Below, one piece after another: positions 120 through 19,681 of a DNA stretch of 64,000 nucleotides. The stretch is from a virus (taxonomy: Duplodnaviria; Caudoviricetes): positions 25,221 to 89,220 of IMG/VR virus record IMGVR_UViG_3300032038_000044. One strand, given 5' to 3'. Position 1 is the stretch's first letter, and every line of letters begins with the position of its first letter. Under the pieces are notes generated by a model. The model searched no databases, was not told the origin of the DNA, and saw nothing but the letters and a program-made list of their open reading frames with translations. A program made the position numbers and the translations under genes.

Positions 120-305
120 TTAAAAAATAGAATCTTGTAATTTAAGAATGTATTTATCACCATCAGAATCAGCCTTATCTAAATAAAGACCTAAATCTTC
201 ATGTTGAAAAGTATGTGGATTAACAAAATCATACTTAATCTCTATTTCTTTATTATAATTATTTGTATCACTAATTATACGCTGAGCTAATTCAATCGCT
301 TTCAT
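120..305 (-). CDS. hypothetical protein (start revised to MKAIELAQ)
   Basis: RBS AGAAGGAG before ATG at 305; ATGA overlap with upstream ORF. Confidence 0.6.
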   Translation of the reverse strand: MKAIELAQRIISDTNNYNKEIEIKYDFVNPHTFQHEDLGLYLDKADSDGDKYILKLQDSIF

Positions 306-481
306 GTTTCTCCTTCTACATACTGTGAATAAGGGCATACCTTGTAATTCCAGCCACAACAAGCCAATGCCCTGAACTCTTCTTCAGTTAAATCCTCATT
401 ATCTCCGCATTGTTCCACACATTGTTCACCTATTAAATATCTGCAATTTTTTCTAATAGTTTCTTTTTTTAGTATGGTCAT
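302..481 (-). CDS. small Cys-rich hypothetical protein (59 aa)
   Basis: Manual translation MTILKKETIRKNCRYLIGEQCVEQCGDNEDLTEEEFRALACCGWNYKVCPYSQYVEGET; GGAGTG RBS and a sigmaA-like promoter at about 507-545; below ORF-track cutoff. Confidence 0.6.
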   Translation of the reverse strand: MTILKKETIRKNCRYLIGEQCVEQCGDNEDLTEEEFRALACCGWNYKVCPYSQYVEGET

Positions 482-577
482 AATTTATCACTCCTTTTTT
501 TCTCTCTTATATATAAATTATATCAAATTTTTTTCAATAAATCAAAAAAAGACCTATCACCAAGATAGGTCTTATCA

Positions 578-1495
578 TTATTCTCCTAATATAATATTCT
601 TTGCTAACTTCATTGTAGTTGAACCACAAAACTTACCAAAATTTGGTATCATGGCTACAATTTCTGGCTCTTCCTTTAGACAGTCATTGTAAAGTCTGTG
701 CGGAAGGTCCCTAGCCACGATTGACATATCCTCAGGCGTCAATTCCGCAGGATAAACACCCTCGTCAATAGCCTTGCGAATATTCTTTTCTACTCTTACT
801 CTTGTTACAATAGTCTCAGTGAGCTTCTGAAGTCTTTCCTTTTCCGCCAATGCCTCAAGGTCAATTACCTTAGTCTTCATAGTCTCCTTAAAGTCATCGT
901 TGACAATCTTTAGGTATTTAGGCAGACGAATATTACCATCATTAAGCTTTGTCTGATTCTTAACAACGATACCCTCCTGTCTATCACCGTACATTGGTGA
1001 GTTCATGAAAGTCATACAATGCTCCCAAGAGATGAACTGACCTTCATAAAGCACATGAATATACTCAAGACCTGCCTTATGTGCAAAAATCTTGACTGAC
1101 TTCTGCGGAAGCCACTCTTCCTTCATTGTATCATAAATGTCATAGACATACCATCTCTTATAGAACTCCTTGTTGTAAACAATCTTGTTCTTGTTACCCC
1201 ACTCACCAAACACAATAAAGTTAGGATGCTTCTTAAACATATGTACTGCTGGCTCTGGTAATGTCATGATGAAATCATAGAATCCACCTAAGGTATTAGA
1301 AGGGTTAAGGTCCTGCTTTCTACTGCAAGCATGCATAGCCCCCGCTTCCGCATCCCAATAAGCTGATGCGTTAGAACCATCCCACTTCTCTGTAATCTGG
1401 ATTTCATCACCCACTTCAAAAGCACCGGTATTAGTCTTAACTAAACCGTTATCTCCTGACATTCTAATATGTTCAATATCAATAAAATGCTTCAT
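578..1495 (-). CDS. RNA ligase, Rnl2-like nucleotidyltransferase
   Basis: Motif I TEKWDGSN, IVFGEW, YVYDI, QEGIVVK, YLKIVNDDFKE; C-terminal helical domain; own promoter at about 1524-1555. Confidence 0.85.
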   Translation of the reverse strand: MKHFIDIEHIRMSGDNGLVKTNTGAFEVGDEIQITEKWDGSNASAYWDAEAGAMHACSRKQDLNPSNTLGGFYDFIMTLPEPAVHMFKKHPNFIVFGEWGNKNKIVYNKEFYKRWYVYDIYDTMKEEWLPQKSVKIFAHKAGLEYIHVLYEGQFISWEHCMTFMNSPMYGDRQEGIVVKNQTKLNDGNIRLPKYLKIVNDDFKETMKTKVIDLEALAEKERLQKLTETIVTRVRVEKNIRKAIDEGVYPAELTPEDMSIVARDLPHRLYNDCLKEEPEIVAMIPNFGKFCGSTTMKLAKNIILGE

Positions 1496-1618
1496 TATTC
1501 TTCCCTTTCTTTTCTTTATATATAAATTATATCAAAAATTTTATAAAAAATCAAAGAATGGTATATGTCAATACTATAACGATTATTTGGATAATATGGA
1601 TAATTGAATTAACCATAA

Positions 1619-1975
1619 TTAATGTACTCCATAAAATATTTCATCATCACCAATGGTGTAGTATATAGTGTTACCTTCTTTATCTATGATTTTAAGGCGG
1701 TCTTCACCTTCATAATGGATATTTCCGCTATATGAATGTATAAGATTGCCTTGCTTATCTGATATAGTTACAGATGTGTATTCGTCTTGGCGGGCTTGTC
1801 TATTACCTTCTCGTATAACAGAATATACAAAAAGAATAAAGAAAATAGCCATAAAAACTCCAGCTATCTTTTGGACTTTTACATTAGCACTATTCCCGCG
1901 TACACTATCACCACTAGCGCAACACTCAACAATAAAGCCTATAAATAAACCTAATATAGATATTAATATTAACAT
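1619..1975 (-). CDS. membrane protein, 2 TM plus small beta domain (paralogue 1, DUF5052-like by eye)
   Basis: Two hydrophobic segments, then VTISDKQGNLIHSYSG...KIIDKEGNTIYY. Confidence 0.6.
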   Translation of the reverse strand: MLILISILGLFIGFIVECCASGDSVRGNSANVKVQKIAGVFMAIFFILFVYSVIREGNRQARQDEYTSVTISDKQGNLIHSYSGNIHYEGEDRLKIIDKEGNTIYYTIGDDEIFYGVH

Positions 1976-2259
1976 TATTTTGTCTCCTTGATTATGTCTA
2001 TGTAATAAGTTTTATTGGTTTCTGTATCTGTAAATTTGACGCGGTTTCCGCTACTCGTCATGACTACGGCGGTATAGGTATTTTCTTTATCTCTCTCCTT
2101 GAAGTCCGCAATACCTAAAAAAACTATCATACCTACTAAAGATATGCAACAAGCGATTCCAGTAGTTTTCGCCATTTTACTTGAGGTTGAGCATATGAAT
2201 AAAGCAAAAAACACAAGGAAAAATATAAAACATATAAATGCAATACATTCTATAACCAT
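1975..2259 (-). CDS. membrane protein, 2 TM (paralogue 2, shortened)
   Basis: Two TM segments, then NRVKFTDTETNKTYY. Confidence 0.6.
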   Translation of the reverse strand: MVIECIAFICFIFFLVFFALFICSTSSKMAKTTGIACCISLVGMIVFLGIADFKERDKENTYTAVVMTSSGNRVKFTDTETNKTYYIDIIKETK

Positions 2260-2261
2260 AA

Positions 2262-2654
2262 TTACTTTACTCCTTTAACTACGTTTTCGCCCTTATCAAA
2301 ATAGTAATATACATCATTACCATTTGCATCTGTATAATGAATTCTATTATTTTCCGAATCTAAATATAAATCTTCACCTGAGAGTGAGTCTTTTAAAACA
2401 CCCTTTTTATCATATACTTCTATTACTTTATAGGTATGGTTATATTCACTTACAGCAACAAAAGGTGCTAAAAATGTAACTAATACACCAATTACGATGA
2501 CCCCACCCGCAATTACTGTTACGATACGACTGAGAAAATTAAGAAATGCCGACATAGCGTCGTCCATACATTCTGCTATTTCAAGTAAACCGAATCCCGC
2601 ACATAGAATAACAATACCTATCACAACTGCTAAAATAAAAATTAATACTGACAT
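2262..2654 (-). CDS. membrane protein, 2 TM plus beta domain (paralogue 3)
   Basis: Two TM segments, then IEVYDKKGVLKDSLSG...NRIHYTDANGNDVYY. Confidence 0.6.
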   Translation of the reverse strand: MSVLIFILAVVIGIVILCAGFGLLEIAECMDDAMSAFLNFLSRIVTVIAGGVIVIGVLVTFLAPFVAVSEYNHTYKVIEVYDKKGVLKDSLSGEDLYLDSENNRIHYTDANGNDVYYYFDKGENVVKGVK

Positions 2655-2992
2655 TTTACTTTTTCACCTTTCTTTAATACATAATATTCGACATTCCCGC
2701 CCTCAAAAACTAACTTTACAGTATCCCCATCAACAGAATAAGAAGTTACATGATAGTTCTCTGTTACATCTTCTTTTTCTATTGTTACTTTATAAGAGTC
2801 TGCCTTTGTATTATTTTCAACAATATAATGGAGTCCTTGGTTGACGAAAAATGAAGTTATTGCGGCACTGAGGACTATTAAAAATTTTCCTGCGAAACTG
2901 TCTATGTTTTCGTCAAAACCTAATGCAAAACATAAACCTACTACTATTGTGACAAGTCCAGGTATAAGTATATAAAGTATTGTTCCCATCAC
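2642..2992 (-). CDS. membrane protein, 2 TM plus beta domain (paralogue 4)
   Basis: Two TM segments, then YKVTIEK...DTVKLVFEGGNVEYY. Confidence 0.6.
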   Translation of the reverse strand: MMGTILYILIPGLVTIVVGLCFALGFDENIDSFAGKFLIVLSAAITSFFVNQGLHYIVENNTKADSYKVTIEKEDVTENYHVTSYSVDGDTVKLVFEGGNVEYYVLKKGEKVKCQY

Positions 2993-3528
2993 TTCTCATC
3001 CTCCCAGTTCTTTACATCAATACAGTTTGCGGCGGCGACGGCTAATGCAGCCCTATGGTTGTCTGGGGTAGTCCCAGCCGTGGCGTCCGCATAAATAGTA
3101 ATAGGTAAATGAGGGTACTGCGCACGAAGAATAAGGGCGTTACTGATGACGCAAATGTCTGTACACACGCCTACTATAACGATACCATCACTCGGTTGAA
3201 CAATATCAATATTAAAACTTCCAAAAGTTGCCTTTGGAATGAGTCTATGGCTTTTCGCAACTTCGGCGAGTTCGTCGACAATTTGCCATCCCCATTCATG
3301 CATTACACAATGTGTTGGAATTCTCTTGCCCTCTTCCATATCTTTATAGAACTGCGGAACATGAGTATCGGCTGTAAAGATAATACTCTGTCCTCTATTA
3401 TGGAAATATTCAACTACATCTTTTACTACCGGAACGACCTTTCTGGTCTCATCTGTTGCAAGGAGAGCGTTAGGCTCCGGTCCCGCAAAATCATTCTGCA
3501 TATCTATTACTATTAGTGTCTTATTCAT
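2989..3528 (-). CDS. pncA: isochorismatase-family cysteine hydrolase, nicotinamidase-like
   Basis: LIVIDMQNDF, DTH, HC...GW, K-TF-SF and catalytic GVCTDICV motifs. Confidence 0.8.
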   Translation of the reverse strand: MNKTLIVIDMQNDFAGPEPNALLATDETRKVVPVVKDVVEYFHNRGQSIIFTADTHVPQFYKDMEEGKRIPTHCVMHEWGWQIVDELAEVAKSHRLIPKATFGSFNIDIVQPSDGIVIVGVCTDICVISNALILRAQYPHLPITIYADATAGTTPDNHRAALAVAAANCIDVKNWEDEK

Positions 3529-4241
3529 TCGCGCCCTTTCTCCTTATAAAAATCTGGGTCTATTTTGTTTATTTCAGAAACAATTTCTCTAGCTGTTCCC
3601 TTTTCGCATCCCCATTGTGTATGTAATGCAGTTACAGGGTCTAAATAAAAATGAATACCATTAGTACAAACATTAAATCTATTAGAATCCCATAGATTTG
3701 CATATACATTATGTCCTACTGTATATTCTATATTTTGTCCTCTACTATGGAAACAATTGTGATAAATAGAATCATATTTTCCTATACCATATGTTTTATA
3801 CTGCGATATTCTATAAATTGATATTACTTTAGCCTTTTCCGCCCTGCATTTCTCACAAACTCCATTATTTGCTCTTGGTGTTTCTGCATCAATCTGTAAC
3901 TTAACTAAAAAGTCTAAATCATGAAACTCATTATAAAGTATTTTATATCCGTATATAACTTCATTCTGAGGACATTTTGATGGAATAAGTTTATCTAAAT
4001 ATTCCTTTACTTCAGGATATTCTATTATTGTATCAAAGTCAATATGAATATCTTTTTTACAGCTTGATAAATCAAGATTAAAAGTACAGTTAGTGTATAT
4101 ATTGCCAGTTAAATAAACAAATGAAGGTTTATTTATTTCAAAATGACAATTATTAAAAATACAACATGTTATATCTACTCCTTCACCTGGTCTTGTAAGA
4201 GTTATTATTTCATCTTTAAATTCACAACCACAATAATTCAT
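3525..4241 (-). CDS. pentapeptide-like N-terminus plus DUF5758-like domain (start revised to MNYCG)
   Basis: KCRAEKAKVISI...YTVG...WDSNRFNVCTNGIHFY matches the family from memory; GGAGGTGAG RBS before 4241. Confidence 0.6.
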   Translation of the reverse strand: MNYCGCEFKDEIITLTRPGEGVDITCCIFNNCHFEINKPSFVYLTGNIYTNCTFNLDLSSCKKDIHIDFDTIIEYPEVKEYLDKLIPSKCPQNEVIYGYKILYNEFHDLDFLVKLQIDAETPRANNGVCEKCRAEKAKVISIYRISQYKTYGIGKYDSIYHNCFHSRGQNIEYTVGHNVYANLWDSNRFNVCTNGIHFYLDPVTALHTQWGCEKGTAREIVSEINKIDPDFYKEKGRE

Positions 4242-4254
4242 AAACTCACCTCCA

Positions 4255-4404
4255 TTACTCCCCGAGCGAAGCGAGGAAACCGATACGTATTGCAACCTTG
4301 ATAAACATAACCATAAGGTAGGTTTCTCCATCATTATAGATGAGTGATACTCCTAAACCTGCGTTCCCGCGGTTGAGATTGTTTACTTTTACTCCAAATT
4401 TCAT
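4255..4404 (-). CDS. small hypothetical protein (49 aa; start revised to MKFGVK)
   Basis: AAGGAG RBS; promoter TTGAAA-17-TATAAT at 4474-4502 on the minus strand. Confidence 0.45.
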   Translation of the reverse strand: MKFGVKVNNLNRGNAGLGVSLIYNDGETYLMVMFIKVAIRIGFLASLGE

Positions 4405-4499
4405 AAACTCGCTCCTTTCAGTCGCTCGTTGAGTGACTCTTTTACCTCTTTTTCTTATTTCTTTTATATATTTATTATATAATAAATTTTTTTTAATTT

Positions 4500-5400
4500 C
4501 AAACTTTCCCGACCGAAGGGAGGAAACTACGTTGCTCATTGCGAGGTTGCGGGGAGGGTTGGTGATTTTGTCTGGTTTTTCATGATTTTTTGTTACATTT
4601 TCTTGAAGGGGAGATTGTAAAATTTATATAAAATTTTATTAATTTTTTATCTATTTTTTGTTGATATTTACATAACATTTTCTTGAGGTGGAGTCGAAAT
4701 AGAGTTTTGTGCAAAGTGTATAAATTTTTGTTTAGAATTTAGTTAATTTTTAGTTATTTTTACATAACTTTTTATTGGGGTGGAGTGCGCCTTCCTTAAG
4801 ACCCCTTATATCGACCTACCCTAGCCCAGAATTACGTCACGGTTCGGCTCGGATTCCTAATGTCGCCAGTCTCTTCCTACGAGCGTAGCGAGTGGTAGAG
4901 ACGGAGACACAAAGCGGAAACGCTTGCGTTTTCGCGCCCTAGTCACGCATAGTAATCACTTGAAATTTATTAAAAATTATGTTATAATTAAATGGGAGGC
5001 CTTTCTTAGCACGTAGAAATGTGACATTTTATTAACTGGGAGAGGAAAAATTTTTCCCGTGTTAATTAAAATAAGCACTTTTTAAAGCCAGGGTATATGA
5101 ATTTTCTTAACACTTTCATACCAAGGGTGTAAATATCCCCTAGGAAGATTAGTTAGCCCCAGATCTAGATTAATATAGACCCGGGTCCCGCAAGAAAAAG
5201 CAAGAGGGCAAATAGAAAACCCAAAGTAAAAAGTTGTAAAAAACTCAACTGGGTACGCAAGAAAAAAGTTGTAAATTTATCAAACAGGTATAATATAAGC
5301 AGTTGAAAAAATTACAACTTTTTTCATGATTTCTCATGGAAAGAAAAATGCAATCTTTTTTTGTAACAAGAGGGAAAAAATTGCATAAAAAGTTGGACAA
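4500..5400. other. long non-coding region, putative replication origin/control region
   Basis: Divergent strand switch, degenerate 80-90 bp AT-rich repeats, GNA mini-hairpins, AAAAAGTTGTAA iteron-like repeats. Confidence 0.45.
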
Positions 5401-5439
5401 TTTGCCTTTGCCCCCTATTACTAAAAATCATATTAAGTA
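5394..5439 (+). promoter_or_regulatory. phage-specific promoter-like motif copy 1 (TGGACAAT...CATATT)
   Basis: GG at 5395 to NATAT at 5429 = 34 nt, same as four other copies. Confidence 0.55.
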
Positions 5440-5464
5440 CAAAGTTCTATAAGGAGGAAAAAAT

Positions 5465-6154
5465 ATGAAAGAACTAAAATTAGGTAAAGTAAGTTTAAAA
5501 GAACTTGCAGAGTGGTTTGGTAAAGGCTATAGCGCAATCGTTCATAATAAAGAAGAATATTATAAAAAACTAGAAACATATTGTGATTTTGAAATTTTAC
5601 CATCCGGAAAAGTTAATATTACAGCAATTCGTACCCCTACATTCTCAGGTAGCGGGAATAAGCAAATTATAAAAGATAATTTTGTGAAAGAGTGGAATGA
5701 TAATGGTTTAGACACTGCTAGAAATGTATCTGAGAAAATTTTTGATAATAATGAAGACGACTTAACTATTACCAGAAGTACCGCATATACATACACATTA
5801 CAAGCCCGCAACGAGCTTTATAATAAGCCATTCTGCGGAAGAGGGGAGAAAGGTTGCTGTGAGTACGTATGGTGTGTTGACTTGGGAGAAGGGCAATTTA
5901 GAGAACTCAATGAGGATGAACAAAAGGTAAAAAATGACCTATTAAAGAAATATTTTGGCAACACAACAGAAAAGCAACTTATGGTAGAAGCTATGGTAAA
6001 GGCAGGAGAGATTACCGAGGCAGAAGCATTTAGCGTTCTAAAAGAAATGACAGGGATGAATCAAGCAGGATTCTTTGGCTTCTTAAAAGAACTTAGTGCA
6101 ACTCTACATTGTAGAGTAATAAAGGCTACTAAACTTATTAATTCAGCTTGGTGA
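5465..6154 (+). CDS. hypothetical DNA-binding protein (N-terminal HTH-like), possible replication initiator
   Basis: SLKELAEWFGKGYSAI HTH-like segment; AAGGAGG RBS; only rightward gene next to the iteron-like repeats; function inferred. Confidence 0.45.
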   Translation: MKELKLGKVSLKELAEWFGKGYSAIVHNKEEYYKKLETYCDFEILPSGKVNITAIRTPTFSGSGNKQIIKDNFVKEWNDNGLDTARNVSEKIFDNNEDDLTITRSTAYTYTLQARNELYNKPFCGRGEKGCCEYVWCVDLGEGQFRELNEDEQKVKNDLLKKYFGNTTEKQLMVEAMVKAGEITEAEAFSVLKEMTGMNQAGFFGFLKELSATLHCRVIKATKLINSAW

Positions 6155-6177
6155 GCGGGACAGGTCCGACACCAAGC

Positions 6178-6333
6178 TTATAGTATACCATAGCGCCGCT
6201 TCCGCTCTTTCTTCTTTTCCTCTTGTTGAAACTCCGGACCGAGACAAACATCGACGGAGACATGCCGTTTTGTCCTTTCTGAATATGGTTTTTCTTTATA
6301 AACAGACGATTCTTCTCCTAATTCTTATTTCAT
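6178..6333 (-). pseudogene. small ORF with in-frame TAA at codon 3
   Basis: ATG AAA TAA followed by 48 open codons in the same frame; consensus promoter TTGACA-17-TATAAT at 6393-6421. Confidence 0.3.
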
Positions 6334-6447
6334 TTCTCTCTTGTTTAGAACCTAGTAGATTTAAGAGGAGATTGAAAAATGCCTCCCGTTCTATTATATC
6401 ATATATTTTTTTATTTGTCAAGTAAGAATCTTACACCTACCCCTGGT

Positions 6448-6575
6448 CAAACAACTGGGCGGGATTGGCGTATATAGGGGTCCTTAGGAACCCGGTGAAC
6501 TGCTGACGTAGGCTAATTCCGGGAAAATATAGGTAAAAGGGCGACAAACAACTAGGTGAAAAATGCGTATATAGG
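6448..6575 (+). repeat. two 31-bp direct repeats CAAACAACT-N11-GCGTATATAGG
   Basis: 6448-6478 and 6545-6575, outer 9 and 11 nt identical. Confidence 0.8.
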
Positions 6576-6654
6576 CTAGGTTGGGGAGGGAATGGGGGCT
6601 GAACCGATGGTTTACGCCCCGCCCAGCACATTTTAGGAACATAAAACCACAATT

Positions 6655-6737
6655 TTTGTGCAAATTTCACAAAAAAATAATCCTAAAGTGCTAAAAATAA
6701 CGAAAATACTGGCAGTTTTGCACAAAAACTGCCAGCC
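6655..6737 (+). repeat. cassette unit A (partial): TTTGTGCA box plus 27-nt hairpin 6709-6735
   Basis: CTGGCAGTTTT-GCACA-AAAACTGCCAG followed by CC; no consensus rightward promoter. Confidence 0.75.
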
Positions 6738-6754
6738 AGACGCAAAAAAGAGGT

Positions 6755-7093
6755 CTATTCAACCTCTTTTCCACCAAATTTCTCTACAAAATCCTGAAAA
6801 CTGTTATAATCATAGTCATTTAGATAAAAATCTTCTAACTGGTTAAGTGTATAGTCTGTCTCAAAATAGTAAGCATAATACCCGCCATTCTCATAAGCAG
6901 ACTCCTCATCTTCGTCTATACACTCATAGCTCTCGATAAGACCCCATATAAGGTCGCCGCCAATATCTCGCGCAATCGCTGCAAAGCGGTCTGTAGGTTC
7001 ATCTGGTTCAAGCTCTATAAACGTATAGTCATTGATACCATGTAGCCCCTGATAGTTACCCTCACAAGCTACTACAAACAAAATCTTATTCAT
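6755..7093 (-). CDS. hypothetical acidic protein
   Basis: ORF with GGAG RBS. Confidence 0.65.
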   Translation of the reverse strand: MNKILFVVACEGNYQGLHGINDYTFIELEPDEPTDRFAAIARDIGGDLIWGLIESYECIDEDEESAYENGGYYAYYFETDYTLNQLEDFYLNDYDYNSFQDFVEKFGGKEVE

Positions 7094-7103
7094 ATCTTTT
7101 CTC

Positions 7104-7418
7104 CTAATCTAATTTCCTTATATTATCATATACCTCGTAATACTGGCGGAAGTCCTCGGTATAGAGTTCCAGCTCTTCCTCGGTGGGCTTGTCTGTTTGC
7201 GATACCCACACAAACCAGCCAGCATCTCTGGCAAGTCTGCGCTCCTTTTCTGACCTCGTATAATTCTTGATAAGGTCAGCCACTGTCATTATGCGCATGT
7301 CCGCATATCCGTACGTATCATAGATGAACCGCCATTCGCGCCAGTCCTTGTGTGTGCGCTTGAATCTATATGCTATTTTCTTCCACACCTTTCTCTTAGG
7401 TGTTTTACAACCGAACAT
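7104..7418 (-). CDS. hypothetical protein
   Basis: ORF with AAGGAG RBS. Confidence 0.65.
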   Translation of the reverse strand: MFGCKTPKRKVWKKIAYRFKRTHKDWREWRFIYDTYGYADMRIMTVADLIKNYTRSEKERRLARDAGWFVWVSQTDKPTEEELELYTEDFRQYYEVYDNIRKLD

Positions 7419-7443
7419 ATATTCTCCTTTTATAGGGGGCGCA

Positions 7444-7809
7444 TTACTTTGCGCCCTTAGCCTTTGGTGGTCTGTGCTTTGTCAACTTGAGTGTGTACTC
7501 TGTTGTACCTTGCTTAAATGATACCTCAACCTCGTTCTTAACTGATATATCCGTGACATCAGAGAACTGACCGAGGGTTTCCGCCATCTTCTCAATGAGA
7601 ACTTTCTTCTCTTCGTCTATCTTGCGGACTACATTTCTTTTCTTCTTTTCTGTTGTTGCCTGAACATAGGTTTTAATCTCTGTCGCGCCCTGTTCCATCT
7701 TTGCCATCTCTAAGGCTTCTTCCCTAGTGACTGGCTCTCCATCCTCTTCACATTCTTTCATAATCTGTGTAACGAGAACTTCAATATCGACTTCTTTCTT
7801 CTTTGCCAT
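7444..7809 (-). CDS. hypothetical protein
   Basis: ORF with RBS and upstream promoter (unit B). Confidence 0.7.
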   Translation of the reverse strand: MAKKKEVDIEVLVTQIMKECEEDGEPVTREEALEMAKMEQGATEIKTYVQATTEKKKRNVVRKIDEEKKVLIEKMAETLGQFSDVTDISVKNEVEVSFKQGTTEYTLKLTKHRPPKAKGAK

Positions 7810-10068: not shown

Positions 10069-10542
10069 TTATTTATCTTCTTCATTTCTTGCCCATTCTC
10101 CTAACTTCTCTAATATTTCCACAACACGTGGATGTTCATTTGCAAAGTACACAGCCCAAAAGGTTGCCGCCACTTCGTCAGGTAATTTAAAATATTCCGT
10201 CTTTAAAATAGCAACATAGCCATCTATATTATCATCTTCTAAGGCTTCAATAGCTTTTTCAATTTTCTCCTTTTCCGCCATTATTTCTTCCTTTTGTTCA
10301 TCAGATATTCTTGGAAGTGTTATTGAATGACCTATCTCGTGTAATATAGATAAAGCAAAAGGACAATTAACTTTATATCCAAAAGTTGATTCAATATCTT
10401 CATTGAAAGCCCTATCTTGAATTTCATCACAATTTACACGATATGTTAAAGTATCATCATTTTCATCATACTGAAAATCATCTCCCTTAACCACATTCTT
10501 AATATTGAAATTGCGCTGGATGTATAATTCTAATGTATTCAT
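10069..10542 (-). CDS. HExxH zinc-metallopeptidase-like protein (paralogue 1)
   Basis: SILHEIGH plus downstream PDEVAATFWA. Confidence 0.65.
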   Translation of the reverse strand: MNTLELYIQRNFNIKNVVKGDDFQYDENDDTLTYRVNCDEIQDRAFNEDIESTFGYKVNCPFALSILHEIGHSITLPRISDEQKEEIMAEKEKIEKAIEALEDDNIDGYVAILKTEYFKLPDEVAATFWAVYFANEHPRVVEILEKLGEWARNEEDK

Positions 10543-10710: not shown

Positions 10711-11976
10711 TTAGAGTTCATTAATATGAAGATTGATGATTTCATCAATAGCCTCAATCATAGGTACATCTACTGAACTAATATTTACATTGTTTCTATA
10801 TCTAGCTTCAACAGTAGCACCCTGTTCCTTGTTGAAACGGCAAGTTAAATATGATTTATCTGGACTTCCAATCTTTCGTATAAAATAGATATAATTTCTA
10901 CCCTCAAGAATAGAGCCATCATAGTAATAACCAACACAGTTGTTCTGCTGACGACCCTCATCAATCTTTTCAGCTTGGTTCTGTGGTACAATTACTATAT
11001 ACCCATCAAGCTTATGAGTATTAATGAAGTTAAGCTTCTGTAACTGAGCGCTCAGTTCTTTATTTCTAAGATTTTCAAGTAAGTTTTCAGCGTTTCTAAT
11101 ATTTACCCCTAGCGTTCTATTTGTATCTAAAGTGAACTCAAGTTCTTCTTGTCGTAAATCATCTACAACATCTATGAGGTCTCTAAGAAGCTGACTTATA
11201 CCATTTAATCTCTCAAAACATATTGTATTTTCAATTACTTTTAATAATTGACTAGGTGGTAATATATCAACCATATTTTTATAATTGTTTCTTATATCAA
11301 GACACTGAAAGATAAAACCTCTCTCTTTAGCTGAATAGTTAGAATAATCTCTATCCACCTGACACCTAGAAATAGCTATGCGCCAATTTCTACCATGTAT
11401 ATCTAAATACCTAGAAAAATTTTTAGGCATAACTTTTGGGTCAAAATTGTTACTTTTTAGTTCTTCTATAATAGATTTAACTTCTGTAAAGCTAGTTGCA
11501 TAATTGAAAATCCATTCATAATCAAATAATTTAATAATATCATCAAAAGAATTAAAACCACAATCAACAGTCATTCTGTAATTACCAAAGTCATTTTCTT
11601 TTGTGATAAAATCATAAGAAAACCGTCTAATCATGTGCATATTTTGAGCTTCAAAATTTAATATGTTCTTATTTTTATAAAATGACCTATAAGGATTAAC
11701 TATAGCTATATCTTTAACTATCTCATGTAATGACTTCTTATTTGGGTCATGGTCAACTATATATTTAATAGGAGACGGATATTGTACCTTATATTCAACC
11801 TGAAGTCTCTCAAGACTTGCCTTTATTGCTGGAGCATTAACACTACTATGGTCTAACTGTTTACAACAACTCATAGAAAATAATGCAACATCAGTTGTAG
11901 TAAAATCATTTACTCTTGAAATGATTACCTTTAACATATTATCCAATTCTTTCTTTTCATAATAATTTAATCCCAT
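10711..11976 (-). CDS. PcfJ-like domain protein
   Basis: C-terminal IIVPQNQAEKIDEGRQQNNCVGYY...IYFIRK...LTC pattern. Confidence 0.7.
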   Translation of the reverse strand: MGLNYYEKKELDNMLKVIISRVNDFTTTDVALFSMSCCKQLDHSSVNAPAIKASLERLQVEYKVQYPSPIKYIVDHDPNKKSLHEIVKDIAIVNPYRSFYKNKNILNFEAQNMHMIRRFSYDFITKENDFGNYRMTVDCGFNSFDDIIKLFDYEWIFNYATSFTEVKSIIEELKSNNFDPKVMPKNFSRYLDIHGRNWRIAISRCQVDRDYSNYSAKERGFIFQCLDIRNNYKNMVDILPPSQLLKVIENTICFERLNGISQLLRDLIDVVDDLRQEELEFTLDTNRTLGVNIRNAENLLENLRNKELSAQLQKLNFINTHKLDGYIVIVPQNQAEKIDEGRQQNNCVGYYYDGSILEGRNYIYFIRKIGSPDKSYLTCRFNKEQGATVEARYRNNVNISSVDVPMIEAIDEIINLHINEL

Positions 11977-12037
11977 TTTTTATTACCTATTTCCTTTCTT
12001 TTCTTGTAAAGATTTCTTACCTCTTCCTTATGTATTC

Positions 12038-12190
12038 ATTATACTACCTCTACCCTCTAATGTCAAACAAAAAAATGCACAAATTGCGGGAAAACTTTTT
12101 GACATTTTTTATGCAAATTTCCTCTTGACAAAACCGCCTAGGTGTGGTACAATGTTGAATATTGGTCGCGACGCGCGCTAGCGACCAACG
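12038..12190. repeat. cassette unit F: divergent promoters, boxes 12076-12115, hairpin 12162-12188
   Basis: TTGACA 12125, TACAAT 12148. Confidence 0.85.
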
Positions 12191-12199
12191 CAATAAAAA

Positions 12200-12500
12200 A
12201 TAGCCACTATCCACCTATTGCAATCAGTGAATAATGACTATTAGTGCGTGGTAGCCAACCACTAGTATGCTCTTCAGCGCTATTAACCTATAACTAGGGC
12301 AGGTTTCGTCACGCAAGAAACCTACAAACTGCCTCAGTGACTTTAGCGAACACTGCTCCGCTGCCCCTATCTTATCCAAGTTGGCTAACGCTTGGATAAC
12401 TGCTACTGTCAAGAAGTGTGAGGATTCGGACCTCTAATCCCATATATGACACCCCTAGTTTGTAAGGGGTAGGTAGTCATTCCTACCCCTAGCACCTATG
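12200..12500 (-). ncRNA. candidate structured ncRNA/3' UTR containing a tRNA-like minihelix (12412-12456) and a predicted kissing loop
   Basis: 300 nt with no credible ORF, at least 5 hairpins, T-loop GAGG-TCCGAAT-CCTC stacked on an 8-bp stem. Confidence 0.6.
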
Positions 12501-12504
12501 AAGA

Positions 12505-12837
12505 TTACTCTGCGAGAGAGTAAGCTGACTTCTTAGCATCCTTTACGACCTTACCAGCCTTAATAAGTCTACCAAGAGAAGCTGTTACCTTTGGAACTGA
12601 GCCAAATGCTTCGACATCCTTTGCAAAGATATTTGTTGGTGACATAGGCTCTGTACCAAGTACGGCAAGTACCTTTTCATCAATATTAGCCTGAGCCTCA
12701 GCTACCTTTTCAGACTTACCTGAATACTTCTTCACGATAGACTCCTTGAGTGCCTCAAGACGCTCCTTAACCTCTGCATCATCAACAACCTCAATTGCTT
12801 TCTCAAGTGCTACTTTGTACGAAATTTTCTTTTCCAT
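12505..12837 (-). CDS. small basic protein with C-terminal winged-helix-like domain (paralogue 1)
   Basis: MSPTNIF...VPKVTASLGRLIKAGKVVK wHTH-like pattern; preceded by stacked promoters. Confidence 0.7.
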   Translation of the reverse strand: MEKKISYKVALEKAIEVVDDAEVKERLEALKESIVKKYSGKSEKVAEAQANIDEKVLAVLGTEPMSPTNIFAKDVEAFGSVPKVTASLGRLIKAGKVVKDAKKSAYSLAE

Positions 12838-12923
12838 AGTTTTTTCTTCCTTTCTTTTTTGAAAAATGTTTTTGTTTCTTTACATCTTTATTATATCAGA
12901 TGTTTTTTACTTTGTCAAGAGGT

Positions 12924-12969
12924 TTTTTGAAATTGTTTTCAAATCTCACTTTGGATTTGTTATCTTTTC
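12924..12969. repeat. 46/47-bp repeat copy 1 (copy 2 at 24140-24186)
   Basis: 43 identical nt around a 3-4 nt variable core. Confidence 0.85.
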
Positions 12970-13077
12970 TTTACCTCTTTACATTTACTATTATAGCAAA
13001 TGTTTTGAAGTTTGTCAAGAACTTTTTTTATTTTTTTAATTTTTATTTTTAAGTTCTTTCCTTCACTTCTTGATTAA

Positions 13078-13231
13078 ATTATAGCAAAAAATTTTTCAAA
13101 TTACAATTAGTAATGTTGCACAAATTTTAGGAAAAGCCATTGAAAAATTTTGTGCAATTTTTCACTTGACAAAAAGCCTGGGAGTGTGGTATAATGGAAA
13201 TATTGCGCGTTTCTTGAGAAAACGCGCAACC
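13078..13231. repeat. cassette unit G: boxes 13117-13156, hairpin 13203-13229
   Basis: TTGACA 13166, TATAAT 13190. Confidence 0.85.
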
Positions 13232-13259
13232 AAATAAAAAAGAGGGGTTACCCCCCTCT

Positions 13260-13460
13260 TTATCTGTATGTAACACACATAATCTGTTCTATATCAATGT
13301 AAAGTGGCATACTACCTTTAAGCCCTTCAAACGAATAACCAGTAATCCTGCCATTAGTAAGGTCTACCTTAGCATAATTACAACGTATGCGCAAAGACTT
13401 TCCATTTTTAAAAATGATTAATGCACTTTTTATCTTTTTATCTTTCTTTTTACCAAACAT
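13260..13460 (-). CDS. hypothetical protein
   Basis: ORF, stop/start overlap with upstream gene. Confidence 0.6.
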   Translation of the reverse strand: MFGKKKDKKIKSALIIFKNGKSLRIRCNYAKVDLTNGRITGYSFEGLKGSMPLYIDIEQIMCVTYR

Positions 13461-13972
13461 TAAAACATTCCTTCAAATCCAATAAGTTTAGCAAATTTTT
13501 TTGGCTCTTTTTGAATAAATCCATTATCCTGAAGAAACTCTTTACACTCTTCAATAGGTAGTCTTGATACTACCATATCTAATGTCCAATGCTCTAATAC
13601 TATTACTTCTTTTTTGAATTGAAAAACATCATAAGGCTTAAACTTTGTAGTATATATACCAAAGTCATCAAACTCAGCATAGTATTTTGGTTTACTTGAG
13701 AATAAACCAAATTTAACTTTTTTAGAAATGGTTATTTCTAATTTTTGCTCTAAAGCTGTTTTCCAATTAAAATAATCGTGGGCGGTATTATAATCACTTA
13801 TATCTATACCAAGACCAAATAATTCTTTAGCAGGAATTAATTTTGTATCGAAGCTCTCTGGTATTTCTCCATAGCGTGTTTTTGTTGTAATTATGCTATC
13901 AACCCAATCTGATGAAATAAATTCACCATTTTTTAAAAGTTTAATTTCTGTATAATAAATTCCTTTACTCAT
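13460..13972 (-). CDS. hypothetical protein
   Basis: ORF overlapping neighbours. Confidence 0.65.
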   Translation of the reverse strand: MSKGIYYTEIKLLKNGEFISSDWVDSIITTKTRYGEIPESFDTKLIPAKELFGLGIDISDYNTAHDYFNWKTALEQKLEITISKKVKFGLFSSKPKYYAEFDDFGIYTTKFKPYDVFQFKKEVIVLEHWTLDMVVSRLPIEECKEFLQDNGFIQKEPKKFAKLIGFEGMF

Positions 13973-14153
13973 ATTCCCTTATTTCCTTTCTTAATTTATC
14001 GCGGCGGCGACCCTTGCGCCCAGTCTTGTACTTTTCAGAGACCCAAGCGCCGTTTCCGCATTGGTATGGATTGAATTTTTCCATATCTATAAGTGACTTT
14101 TCAATACTATCCATCACTTGAATTGTTTCTCTTCTTTTTCTCTTGTGAGCCAT
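13965..14153 (-). CDS. small basic hypothetical protein (start revised to MAHKRK)
   Basis: AAGGAGATAAGGTTATG leader. Confidence 0.6.
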   Translation of the reverse strand: MAHKRKRRETIQVMDSIEKSLIDMEKFNPYQCGNGAWVSEKYKTGRKGRRRDKLRKEIREYE

Positions 14154-14194
14154 AACCTTATCTCCTTTACATTTATAATTATAGCATAATGCTT

Positions 14195-14707
14195 TTACTC
14201 TGTCAAGCACTTTCTATAAAATCTTTTTAATTCTTTTTTGATAAGATTGTCAAAGTGTAACACTTCTTTTCTGTTGTTGTGGATGTAGTCACAAGCCCAC
14301 TGAGTAGCCATAAGCTCATCAGCCAAGTGCCAGTAGTAGTTACCTATACTTGGTGTCCATTTTGGTTGCTTACTTAACATTTCCTTTACTTCATTACAGT
14401 AATCATCTTCACTACTTGTAAGATAATTCTGTGTCATAATGTGACCTACTTCGTGTAATAATGAAAGGGTAAAAATGTCAACACCATCAATGTTAAATTC
14501 TTCTTTTACAAAGTCCTTAAAAGCCTCGTCAGCTTTATTCTTCATAAGAACAGTATAGAATATTGTATTTGCATCATCGTGGCAACAACATAAGAAATCA
14601 TAACTGATTCCACCGCTATTACAACCAAAAGAAGTGATGTATCTATCGACAACCCTTGTAACCTTATGAAGTTCTTTACTAACCTTATTATCTATTCTCT
14701 TACTCAT
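14195..14707 (-). CDS. HExxH zinc-metallopeptidase-like protein (paralogue 2)
   Basis: SLLHEVGH plus ADELMATQWA. Confidence 0.65.
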   Translation of the reverse strand: MSKRIDNKVSKELHKVTRVVDRYITSFGCNSGGISYDFLCCCHDDANTIFYTVLMKNKADEAFKDFVKEEFNIDGVDIFTLSLLHEVGHIMTQNYLTSSEDDYCNEVKEMLSKQPKWTPSIGNYYWHLADELMATQWACDYIHNNRKEVLHFDNLIKKELKRFYRKCLTE

Positions 14708-14734
14708 AGGTCTTATCTCCTTCCTTATGTAATC

Positions 14735-14855
14735 ATTGTACTATGAATTGAGGGAATTGTCTAGTCGTCAGATTGCACAAAGTTCAAATCAAAAATTTGT
14801 TGAAATTGCCTATTGACATGAAATACTGTCCGGCGCGCTTGACGTCGGACAGCCC
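14735..14855. repeat. cassette unit H (short subtype): boxes, TTGACA without -10, hairpin 14826-14852
   Basis: CTGTCCG...CGGACAG, 27 nt. Confidence 0.8.
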
Positions 14856-14924
14856 AAACCATCAAAGCCCCCTACATTGCGTAGGGGGCTCTGAAAGGAA
14901 GGTATAAGGTTTTTCGTGTTAGAA

Positions 14925-14978
14925 AAGTGGGGAGGGGAGTTGCACCCCTCTAGCTAGGACTTTCTTCCTCGCCCACCT
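14925..14978 (-). ncRNA. tRNA-like element lacking an anticodon arm (54 nt)
   Basis: AGGTGGG/CCCACTT acceptor-like stem, AGGA-AGAAAG-TCCT hairpin, GAGGGG-TGCAACT-CCCCTC T-arm. Confidence 0.6.
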
Positions 14979-14983
14979 AGACA

Positions 14984-15322
14984 TTAGACAAGCTTGTAGC
15001 CTGTCTTTTTACCACTGATAGCAACCTTTTCAGCCTTGCCATCTGCAACAAGTCTTGTAAGTGATGCAGTAACCTTTGGTACTGAACCAAGTGCCTCAGC
15101 ATCCTTTGCGAAGATTGCAGTTGCTGACTGTGGCTCATCAGTAAGGACTGCAAGAACTGCCTCATCAACTGCTGACTGAGCCTGAGCGACCTTTTCTGAC
15201 TTTCCTGAATACTTCTTGACGATTGATTCCTTGAGAGCCTCTAATCTCTCCCTTACTTCCCCGTCTGCTACTTCCTCGATTGCCTTTTCAAGTGCTACCT
15301 TGTAACTCATTTTCTTCTCCAT
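14984..15322 (-). CDS. small basic winged-helix-like protein (paralogue 2)
   Basis: Clearly homologous to 12505-12837 (MEKK.SYKVALEKAIE, SVPKVTASL). Confidence 0.7.
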   Translation of the reverse strand: MEKKMSYKVALEKAIEEVADGEVRERLEALKESIVKKYSGKSEKVAQAQSAVDEAVLAVLTDEPQSATAIFAKDAEALGSVPKVTASLTRLVADGKAEKVAISGKKTGYKLV

Positions 15323-15527
15323 TTTTAATTACCTCTCTTTCTTTTTTAATGGATTTCTTTTTGTTTACATCTTTATTATAGCAAATTTTTTTAAGTCTGT
15401 CAACACTTTTTTTTATTTTTTTTAACAGACTTTAGAGGACTGTCAACCACCTAAAACAGTTAGCGTAGCCAACTTCCCACCGACCATCCTAGTAGTGCGG
15501 TTTCCGCATTTCCTCTTTACATTTATA

Positions 15528-15681
15528 AGTATAACAAATTTTAATTTTCTTTTCTATTGTTAAAATACACAAATTATAGGAAAAATCTTGGCTGTTTTTT
15601 GTGCAATTTTACTCTTGACAAAACTGCCAGGGTATGTTATAATGGTGAATACTGGGCATTTTGCGCGAAAATGCCCAGCCC
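15528..15681. repeat. cassette unit I: boxes 15566-15605, hairpin 15652-15678
   Basis: TTGACA 15615, TATAAT 15638. Confidence 0.85.
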
Positions 15682-17178: not shown

Positions 17179-17342
17179 ATTATATACCCTTACACCCTAC
17201 CCCGTCAAGCATTTTCACATAAAAAATTGCACAAAATGCGGGAATGGCGGCGAGGGAACTTTGTGCAAGATTACCATTGACAAAACACCAAAGGGGTGGT
17301 ATAATTGAAAATACTGCCCGTTTGGAATGCGAACGGGCAGCC
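17179..17342. repeat. cassette unit J: boxes 17228-17267, hairpin 17314-17340
   Basis: TTGACA 17277, TATAAT 17300. Confidence 0.85.
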
Positions 17343-19249: not shown

Positions 19250-19681
19250 TCAACCCTCATGTTCATTAATTTCTTTCTTAATTGCATTGATAGCAATTAA
19301 AATCTGTTCTTCAATAGTCGCACAAGTATTCTCATAGCTGAAAGATGTTTCATCCTTTATAGCCTCGATATATGACATTATCTCGCCAAGGTCGAAATAG
19401 TCCATCTCAAGCTTTGCAAGGTTAATACCCTTGACAATATCAAGACCATCTTCATCCTCACCCTCAAGGTATCCAACATACATCCAACGAGCATCCTCTT
19501 CTGATTCATCATAGAATGTAATATACATTCCATCAAGAAGATTGTCTATAACGACTTTATTCTGTGCAACCTTTTTAGCAATTTCTCTTAATAACTCACA
19601 AGCATTAACAAAAGCAACATTATATGCAAGTCTATCAAGCTCCTCATTATACTTCTTCATCATTTCTCCAAAAATACTCAT
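19250..19681 (-). CDS. hypothetical acidic protein
   Basis: ORF with AGGAAGG RBS. Confidence 0.65.
   Translation of the reverse strand: MSIFGEMMKKYNEELDRLAYNVAFVNACELLREIAKKVAQNKVVIDNLLDGMYITFYDESEEDARWMYVGYLEGEDEDGLDIVKGINLAKLEMDYFDLGEIMSYIEAIKDETSFSYENTCATIEEQILIAINAIKKEINEHEG

Follow-up and report, generated by a model that had tools for sequence, protein, structure and literature searches.

tRNA-like acceptor/T-arm folds behind winged-helix genes of a rumen phage as candidate processing modules

Two tRNA-like folds behind paralogous genes

The DNA analyzed here is a window of 64,000 nucleotides (nt) from the 89,220-base IMG/VR virus record IMGVR_UViG_3300032038_000044, which is about 61% complete, and the features in question are two tRNA-like RNA folds on its minus strand, each lying directly behind one of two paralogous winged-helix genes. 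A sequencing-run lookup identified bovine gut metagenomes as the main source of matches to window positions 12100-15450, and three runs labeled as RNA, of which one is probably DNA, contributed small shares only. In a promoter scan, the genes around the folds are laid out as short minus-strand cassettes, each with a perfect sigma-70-type promoter. Taken from the list of open reading frames (ORFs) and a structure model, paralogue 1 (12505-12837) encodes a winged-helix protein of 110 amino acids (aa) and paralogue 2 (14984-15322) a protein of 112 aa with N-terminal helices and a C-terminal winged helix. The two proteins are 74% identical; nonetheless, the RNA elements behind them differ in sequence. 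Element 1 (12412-12456), which is supported by its sequence, by relatives and by a paralogue within the genome, is an acceptor/T-arm minihelix of 8 + 4 base pairs (bp) with the loop UCCGAAU (TCCGAAT in the DNA), and starts 48 nt after the stop codon at 12505-12507. Element 2 (14925-14978), supported by its sequence, the folds of relatives and covariation, combines a 7-bp acceptor, a 4-bp side hairpin and a 6-bp T-arm with the loop UGCAACU (TGCAACT), and starts 5 nt after the stop codon at 14984-14986. Both elements had been picked out from the letters of this DNA, and on the minus-strand read they match that original prediction letter for letter, as do the distances to the stop codons.

To place the two folds against chance, both strands of the window (128 kb) were scanned for a T-loop of the form TNCRANY on a T-stem of at least 4 bp, with 12 coaxial pairs in all. 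The window holds exactly two such acceptor/T-arm minihelices, elements 1 and 2, and the chance mean in 100 Markov-shuffled windows is 0.45. The scan pattern was designed after the elements were already known, so the weight of the evidence rests on comparison among relatives. The related contigs were reached through protein searches and one conserved DNA word; searches for related loci with the paralogue alignment, with the 170-aa protein encoded next to element 2 and with two exact patterns gave no match in viral contigs, and blastn against a phage collection returned trivial AT-rich matches only. The expectation that no full tRNA would be found is borne out. ARAGORN calls no tRNA or transfer-messenger RNA (tmRNA) either in the window or in six related loci, Rfam 15 gives nothing in the window at gathering score, and the Rfam tRNA model has no match at E-values up to 10 in 11900-15450. 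These tools do recognize 24 tRNAs in other parts of the genome. Three copies in the genome, of 8 + 4, 7 + 6 and 6 + 6 bp, place about 12 coaxial acceptor and T-arm pairs with a T-loop inside a non-tRNA transcript. An encoded CCA is missing from elements 1 and 2, as it is from the phage tRNAs, and their G-U pairs are compatible with the gene strand only.

Element 2 is present behind the orthologous gene in six related contigs (L002, L003, L015, L016, L018 and L020) and in a diverged form in L010, and the same three helices are mostly recovered when the sequences of six relatives are folded singly. In an alignment of 11 sequences, 90% of the cells are paired and compensatory changes occur in 11 of 17 pairs; the T-arm is 100% paired, with five of its six pairs covarying. 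The covariation score of 0.452 compares with 0.188 in shuffles, none of 500 of which reaches it, and with no more than 0.193 after sliding of the partners. This alignment was fitted to a covariance model (R1, built from seven sequences), which biases it toward the structure, although the same changes can also be read directly from the raw sequences. Model R1 additionally matches L010 and a locus shared by contigs L011-L013 (E about 5e-3), and it matches genuine phage tRNAs weakly. The loop UGCAAYU is fixed in the window type, in L010, in L011-L013 and in the more distant contig L026, while the stems change completely.

Element 1 is kept in L002, L016 and L018, two of which have the loop UUCGAAC. 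Across its four close relatives, the helices always pair and hardly vary, with two one-sided changes only. A paralogue elsewhere in the genome, behind an RNA that resembles the known GOLLD family, has a near-identical T-arm and a wholly different acceptor that still pairs. At the site orthologous to element 1, L009 and L010 carry a near-complete cloverleaf, uncalled by ARAGORN and Rfam, with a canonical TTCGACT T-loop and a CAU loop. The T-arm of element 1 is therefore supported by both the in-genome paralogue and the cloverleaf orthologues. The description of these elements as anticodon-less accordingly fits this phage and does not extend to L009 and L010. An alanine-accepting minihelix is unsupported, as the G3-U70 pair of element 1 becomes A-U in L016.

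These comparisons indicate that the elements are real, uncatalogued tRNA-like folds selected on the gene strand, that selection acts on the acceptor/T-arm stack and on the sequence of the T-loop, and that the folds share an evolutionary line with a full cloverleaf and are found in three different types of transcript. Several other readings could be set aside. An attP-type tRNA fragment is ruled out by the presence of both acceptor strands and by a loop that is not a standard tRNA loop. A stop-codon readthrough signal is ruled out because the post-stop extension is short and lacks conservation between the window and L002. A small ORF on the opposite strand is likewise ruled out: it is in different frames with respect to the loop in L011 and in the window, the G-U pairs fit the gene strand only, and in L016 its frame is disrupted by an indel of 1 nt that leaves the RNA pairs in place. 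It is improbable that the folds are decaying remnants of tRNA genes without function or mere parts of terminator or antiterminator hairpins, as their continuity with the cloverleaf of relatives, their unremarkable individual stability and their position upstream of terminators might suggest. Compensatory changes are found in all three helices, the loop is fixed across lineages whose stems are unrelated, pairing survives the frameshifting indel in L016, and an acceptor helix has no role in a terminator.

The larger RNAs that contain the folds

The two elements had been presented as minihelices, but they do not stand by themselves: element 1 is a domain of an RNA of about 310 nt, and element 2 heads a larger module. 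The first of these, RNA1 (12195-12504, minus strand), is a structured 3′ region that includes element 1 and was delineated by alignment with L002, L016 and L018. It covers the sequence from the stop codon at 12505 to a run of six U at about 12195. Nine helices were aligned across the window, L002, L016 and L018, in which 99.6% of the cells are paired and 10 pairs show compensatory changes. Among these, a loop-loop contact between 12372-12399 and 12248-12262 (minus strand) covaries from AGCCA/UGGCU to AACCA/UGGUU in relatives. RNA1 ends in an intrinsic terminator (12195-12245, minus strand) that folds as a 17-bp stem followed by the six U, and 17 of 17 stem pairs are kept in the four sequences. 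Between the stop codon and element 1 lies a 9-bp hairpin (12465-12490, minus strand) with one compensatory pair. In L009 (485-510) and L010 (2850-2880; both on the plus strand), an apparent H-type pseudoknot, read by eye, replaces this hairpin directly after the stop codon. A closing helix that would join the 5′ end of RNA1 to its distal part was predicted in the window and L002 but is not kept in L016 and L018, and it was dropped. RNA1 has no Rfam match, and the models for GOLLD (RF02032) and ROOL (RF03087) fail on 11900-15450, L002, L009 and L010.

The promoter scan indicates that RNA1 is transcribed together with paralogue 1 from two tandem promoters (12890-13018, minus strand), at 13018-12990 and 12918-12890, both of which match the consensus at 12 of 12 positions. 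Downstream of RNA1, the window has a PcfJ-like gene of 421 aa (10711-11976, minus strand), which is missing from the syntenic place in L002; there, a 38-aa ORF and a 157-aa HExxH gene follow directly.

In the second module, the element 2 minihelix is followed by a 15-nt spacer, a 19-nt CU-rich tract and a GC-rich terminator-like hairpin. The tract (14891-14909, minus strand) is single-stranded and anti-Shine-Dalgarno-like, and it is identical in the window, L002, L015, L016, L018, L020 and L010. It resembles the 3′ tail of 16S rRNA. The tract stays invariant while the sequences of the neighboring hairpins differ among relatives. In the closing hairpin (14864-14890, minus strand), sequence varies among relatives and pairing is kept; its U-run is weak in this phage. 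The region 14860-14983 folds at a z-score of -4.47. Element 1 of the window type is without such a tract. Upstream, the promoter of paralogue 2 (15375-15403, minus strand) is a perfect sigma-70-type promoter, with 12 of 12 consensus positions and an extended -10. Downstream, the module is adjoined in all relatives by the gene for a small HExxH protein, which in the window has 170 aa (14195-14707, minus strand) and a 157-aa paralogue (10069-10542, minus strand); the Pfam metallopeptidase matches of these proteins are sub-threshold.

Copies in other settings and lineages

A third copy of the fold lies outside the window, near the tRNA genes of this phage. Upstream of the window, the record contains 24 tRNA genes (genome positions 1672-7729), none with an encoded CCA, and the array is followed by an ORF-poor region of 1.6 kb that matches ROOL and GOLLD. 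On the piece designated L023, the ROOL RNA is found at 1017-1606 (minus strand; 261 bits, E 4e-60) and the GOLLD-like RNA at 225-651 (minus strand; 108 bits, which is below the gathering score of 150, E 4e-29). The third minihelix (L023:176-217, minus strand) has 6 + 6 bp and the loop UCCGACU (TCCGACT), and the GOLLD match ends 7 nt before it. About 90 nt beyond this minihelix, a second copy of the CU-rich tract (L023:70-90, minus strand) stands directly before a strong terminator. The tract occurs only twice in the 89-kb genome, each time after a minihelix and directly before a hairpin. One tRNA called by ARAGORN in this region, tRNA-Glu(CUC) (L023:1747-1819, minus strand), has the unusual T-loop TGCAAAT, which is of the element 2 type with G at position 55. 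GOLLD and ROOL RNAs have been reported near phage tRNA islands, and tRNAs sometimes lie within the GOLLD linker.

The heavy investment of this phage in tRNA biology, with 24 tRNAs, a ROOL RNA and a GOLLD-like RNA, would fit a role of the folds as decoys for a host defense or toxin that acts on the acceptor end or elbow of tRNA, as would the early, strong transcription of the cassettes that their promoters predict. We nevertheless regard decoys as very improbable. This phage has no anticodon loop in its elements, which excludes anticodon nucleases, there is no CCA end, and no defense or counter-defense gene was identified nearby. With no anticodon loop to attack, this is the weakest of the three functions originally proposed, alongside mRNA 3′-end maturation and a complex with the winged-helix protein.

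Two further lineages show the module in different surroundings. In L011-L013, it makes up a stand-alone unit of about 240 nt that has a perfect promoter and a terminator of its own (L011:4414-4690, plus strand). This unit has the minihelix loop UGCAAUU, the tract core CCUCCUUUC and a strong terminator, and it folds at a z-score of -4.28. Its sole ORF has 25 codons and no ribosome-binding site. The opposite strand in L011 carries a good ribosome-binding site and ATG before a 26-codon ORF, which is not conserved elsewhere. The three winged-helix paralogues of L011-L013 end in plain terminators. In L026, a 76-kb viral contig, a structured RNA of about 330 nt lies behind a distant winged-helix homologue (E 5e-14); this RNA ends with a cloverleaf-like mimic of 7 + 5 bp with the loop UGCAACU, the core CCUCCUUUC and a terminator. 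Neither the L011-L013 locus nor the L026 locus has an Rfam match.

The pairing of a winged-helix gene with a tRNA mimic, which had been proposed as conserved, thus recurs in L002, L003, L015, L016, L018, L020, L009/L010 and L026, and it is not obligatory, given the third copy behind the GOLLD-like RNA, the stand-alone unit in L011-L013 and about 10 more distant winged-helix homologues that are followed by a plain terminator or the next gene, without a minihelix. Outside these contigs, a search of 596 Gb of bacterial and archaeal genomes with the combined loop and tract pattern gave 54 matches, against about 65 estimated by chance, and none of the 54 combines a proper T-stem, a coaxial acceptor and a terminator. 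In viral contigs, three of four matches to this pattern are chance matches in GC-rich DNA.

The label of winged helix given to the paralogues from their sequence is upheld by an AlphaFold2 model and Foldseek matches. The model (pLDDT 85) has three N-terminal helices followed by a C-terminal helix-turn-helix and beta-hairpin wing (helices at residues 67-73, 75-78 and 81-93, strands at 97-100 and 105-108). Winged-helix domains (IclR/HmgR, Z-alpha, CymR, MarR and Fur) account for all of the best Foldseek matches, with weak E-values of at least 7e-3. The protein belongs to no Pfam family, and paralogue 1 has a weak match to PHROG 2440, annotated as transcriptional regulator. Its close relatives are few, but its wider family numbers about 100 representatives, which are 110-125 aa long. 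A winged helix binds RNA in some proteins, such as SelB and La. The fold might then be a binding site of the protein encoded upstream, for autoregulation or in an RNA-protein particle, and both the predicted winged helix and the pairing of gene and element in several lineages, including the distant homologue in L026, point in this direction. There is little probability in this, however, as the GOLLD-side third copy and the stand-alone copy in L011-L013 have no such gene in front, about 10 homologues lack the element, and elements 1 and 2 differ in sequence despite the similarity of their proteins.

The strict conservation of the loop, together with the attached CU-rich tract, suggests that the RNA may act in its own right, without being cut. 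As such a riboregulator, the mimic of the tRNA elbow and the 16S-tail-like tract would pair with Shine-Dalgarno regions or dock on the ribosome or another partner that binds the elbow, tuning early translation. The tract is invariant amid changing hairpins and is found only after minihelices; L011-L013 and L026 share its exact core CCUCCUUUC in the same arrangement, and by our own count the loop and the tract are spaced by 37 nt in both the window and L011. In addition, the L011 module is a self-standing, stably folded non-coding unit with its own promoter, and a loop whose sequence does not change points to a specific contact. On the other side, the predicted targets are generic, with the best duplexes at ribosome-binding sites only about 2 standard deviations better than average, and the paralogues' own ribosome-binding sites rank 31st and 38th of 115. 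Moreover, element 1 of the window type lacks the tract, and the tract in L011 may base-pair within its own RNA, whose 5′ end is purine-rich. We therefore consider such an uncut regulator possible but doubtful. If it did exist, a tRNA mimic joined to a strictly conserved 16S-tail-like tract would be a possible phage route to interfere with translation initiation. A broader proposal, that elbow mimic, spacer, CU-rich tract and hairpin form a new class of phage small RNA acting on translation initiation, appears quite unlikely. Such an RNA would titrate Shine-Dalgarno sequences or dock on the ribosome, where it would mimic tRNA and the rRNA tail at once, and it would stem either from mRNA 3′ regions that are processed in the manner of tRNAs or from a promoter of its own. 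Among the predicted partners of the tract, the genes that start at 19681 and 21322 come first with their ribosome-binding sites, in a ranking that is not decisive; a specific target was not retained, the duplex-energy ranking being unremarkable.

A possible boundary for tRNA-processing enzymes

The fold is found in three settings, namely behind a protein gene, behind a GOLLD-like RNA and in a self-standing unit, and the module is always located between an upstream functional RNA and a conserved downstream piece with a hairpin. From this common position, the simplest role that the copies could share is that of a boundary module for RNase P and RNase Z. An acceptor/T stack of about 12 bp is enough for recognition by both enzymes. 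We tentatively favor, at a probability of roughly 40%, the reading that these tRNA-derived modules are cut sites in phage transcripts for tRNA-processing enzymes of the host. This reading draws on the uniqueness of the folds in the window, their covariation and fixed loop, the cloverleaf at the orthologous site, the weak match of model R1 to genuine phage tRNAs and the T-loop of tRNA-Glu(CUC). The acceptor/T-arm stack and the T-loop elbow that the elements display are the parts recognized by RNase P, RNase Z and the CCA-adding enzyme, and the phage already needs these same host enzymes for its 24 CCA-less tRNA genes. If the module were cut at its two edges, 5′ and 3′, the RNA ahead of it, either the winged-helix mRNA or the GOLLD-like RNA, would be freed from a downstream piece. 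For element 1, this piece would be a structured RNA of about 250 nt, and for element 2 a short RNA in which the terminator-like hairpin follows the CU-rich tract. We infer the cleavage, the enzymes responsible and the role of the released pieces.

Several observations weigh against this assignment. In isolation, the elements do not fold more stably than shuffled sequences (z-scores of -0.36 for element 1 and -1.37 for element 2), and the T-stem of element 1 has just 4 bp and competes with an alternative hairpin in the minimum free energy fold. The near-universal T-loop base U55 is replaced, by C in element 1 and by G in element 2, and position 1-72 is A-U and not G-C. A cut 5 nt past the stop codon would strip the mRNA of paralogue 2 of its protective 3′ hairpin. 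The strict conservation of the loop exceeds what simple hairpin substrates of RNase P need, and it could reflect another partner. Finally, the family of elements is small and confined to related rumen phages.

That tRNA mimics occur within other transcripts is already known as a general idea. In plant mitochondrial t-elements, the mascRNA of MALAT1 and MEN-beta, cuts by RNase P and RNase Z at a tRNA-like fold define transcript ends. The phage elements resemble these in having an acceptor/T-arm fold in a non-tRNA transcript, with no decoding function and at the boundary of a functional RNA. In contrast, those systems are organellar or nuclear, whereas the present ones belong to a DNA phage of rumen bacteria and their cleavage is predicted only; unlike t-elements and mascRNA, one phage form also continues into a CU-rich tract and a terminator-like hairpin. 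The C4 antisense RNA precursor of phages P1 and P7 is a regulatory RNA that host RNase P matures through a tRNA-like fold. It shares with our elements a tRNA-like fold in a phage RNA, but sequence and context are unrelated and no antisense target was identified here. With the tRNAs near or within GOLLD and ROOL, the likeness is that one minihelix directly follows a GOLLD-like match; those, however, are full tRNAs, whereas the elements are reduced mimics, two of which stand behind protein genes.

Other RNAs that mimic tRNA are related to the elements in form. Like tmRNA and the YrlA Y RNAs, they place an acceptor/T-arm mimic without an anticodon arm in a larger structured RNA. Unlike in tmRNA, the acceptor strands are local (45-54 nt) and do not enclose the RNA, G3-U70 is not conserved and ARAGORN is negative. 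A YrlA or Y RNA finds no support, as Rfam gives no match and the 89-kb record, which is incomplete as stated above, shows no Ro/TROVE gene. The tRNA-like element of tymoviruses (RF00233) has in its consensus T-arm the identical UGCAACU loop of element 2, and it is the sole Rfam family that aligns, at 21.1 bits against a gathering score of 40 and with an E-value of 0.25 in 3.5 kb. The identical T-arm loop accounts for this sub-threshold alignment. A further likeness to the tymovirus element, which has an upstream pseudoknot, is the apparent H-type pseudoknot that was seen by eye upstream of the mimic in L009 and L010. The phage elements differ from it in that their acceptor is not a pseudoknot, that they have no 3′-terminal CCA and that they are internal to the transcript of a DNA phage.

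If the modules are cut by tRNA-processing enzymes, tRNA-style punctuation would make non-coding RNAs from mRNA 3′ regions and would trim a GOLLD-type RNA, which would also offer a handle on the maturation of the GOLLD and ROOL RNAs beside tRNA islands. We found no description of phage elements of this kind in the literature. To our knowledge, the logic of tRNA punctuation is known in organelles and for MALAT1 and has not been described for phage mRNAs. At a minimum, the elements add two uncatalogued structured RNA families, the RNA1 of about 310 nt and the element 2 module, to those of rumen phages, of which we know only a small set.

The same region carries promoters of the opposite orientation. 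Perfect or near-perfect plus-strand promoters, which run counter to all neighboring genes, are found at 12125-12153, 13166-13195, 15615-15643 and 17277-17305. Each of them has a hairpin immediately after it and paired TGCACAAA / TTGTGCA boxes before it. Judging from their positions, these promoters would give rise to short RNAs or to transcripts antisense to the 3′ regions described here.

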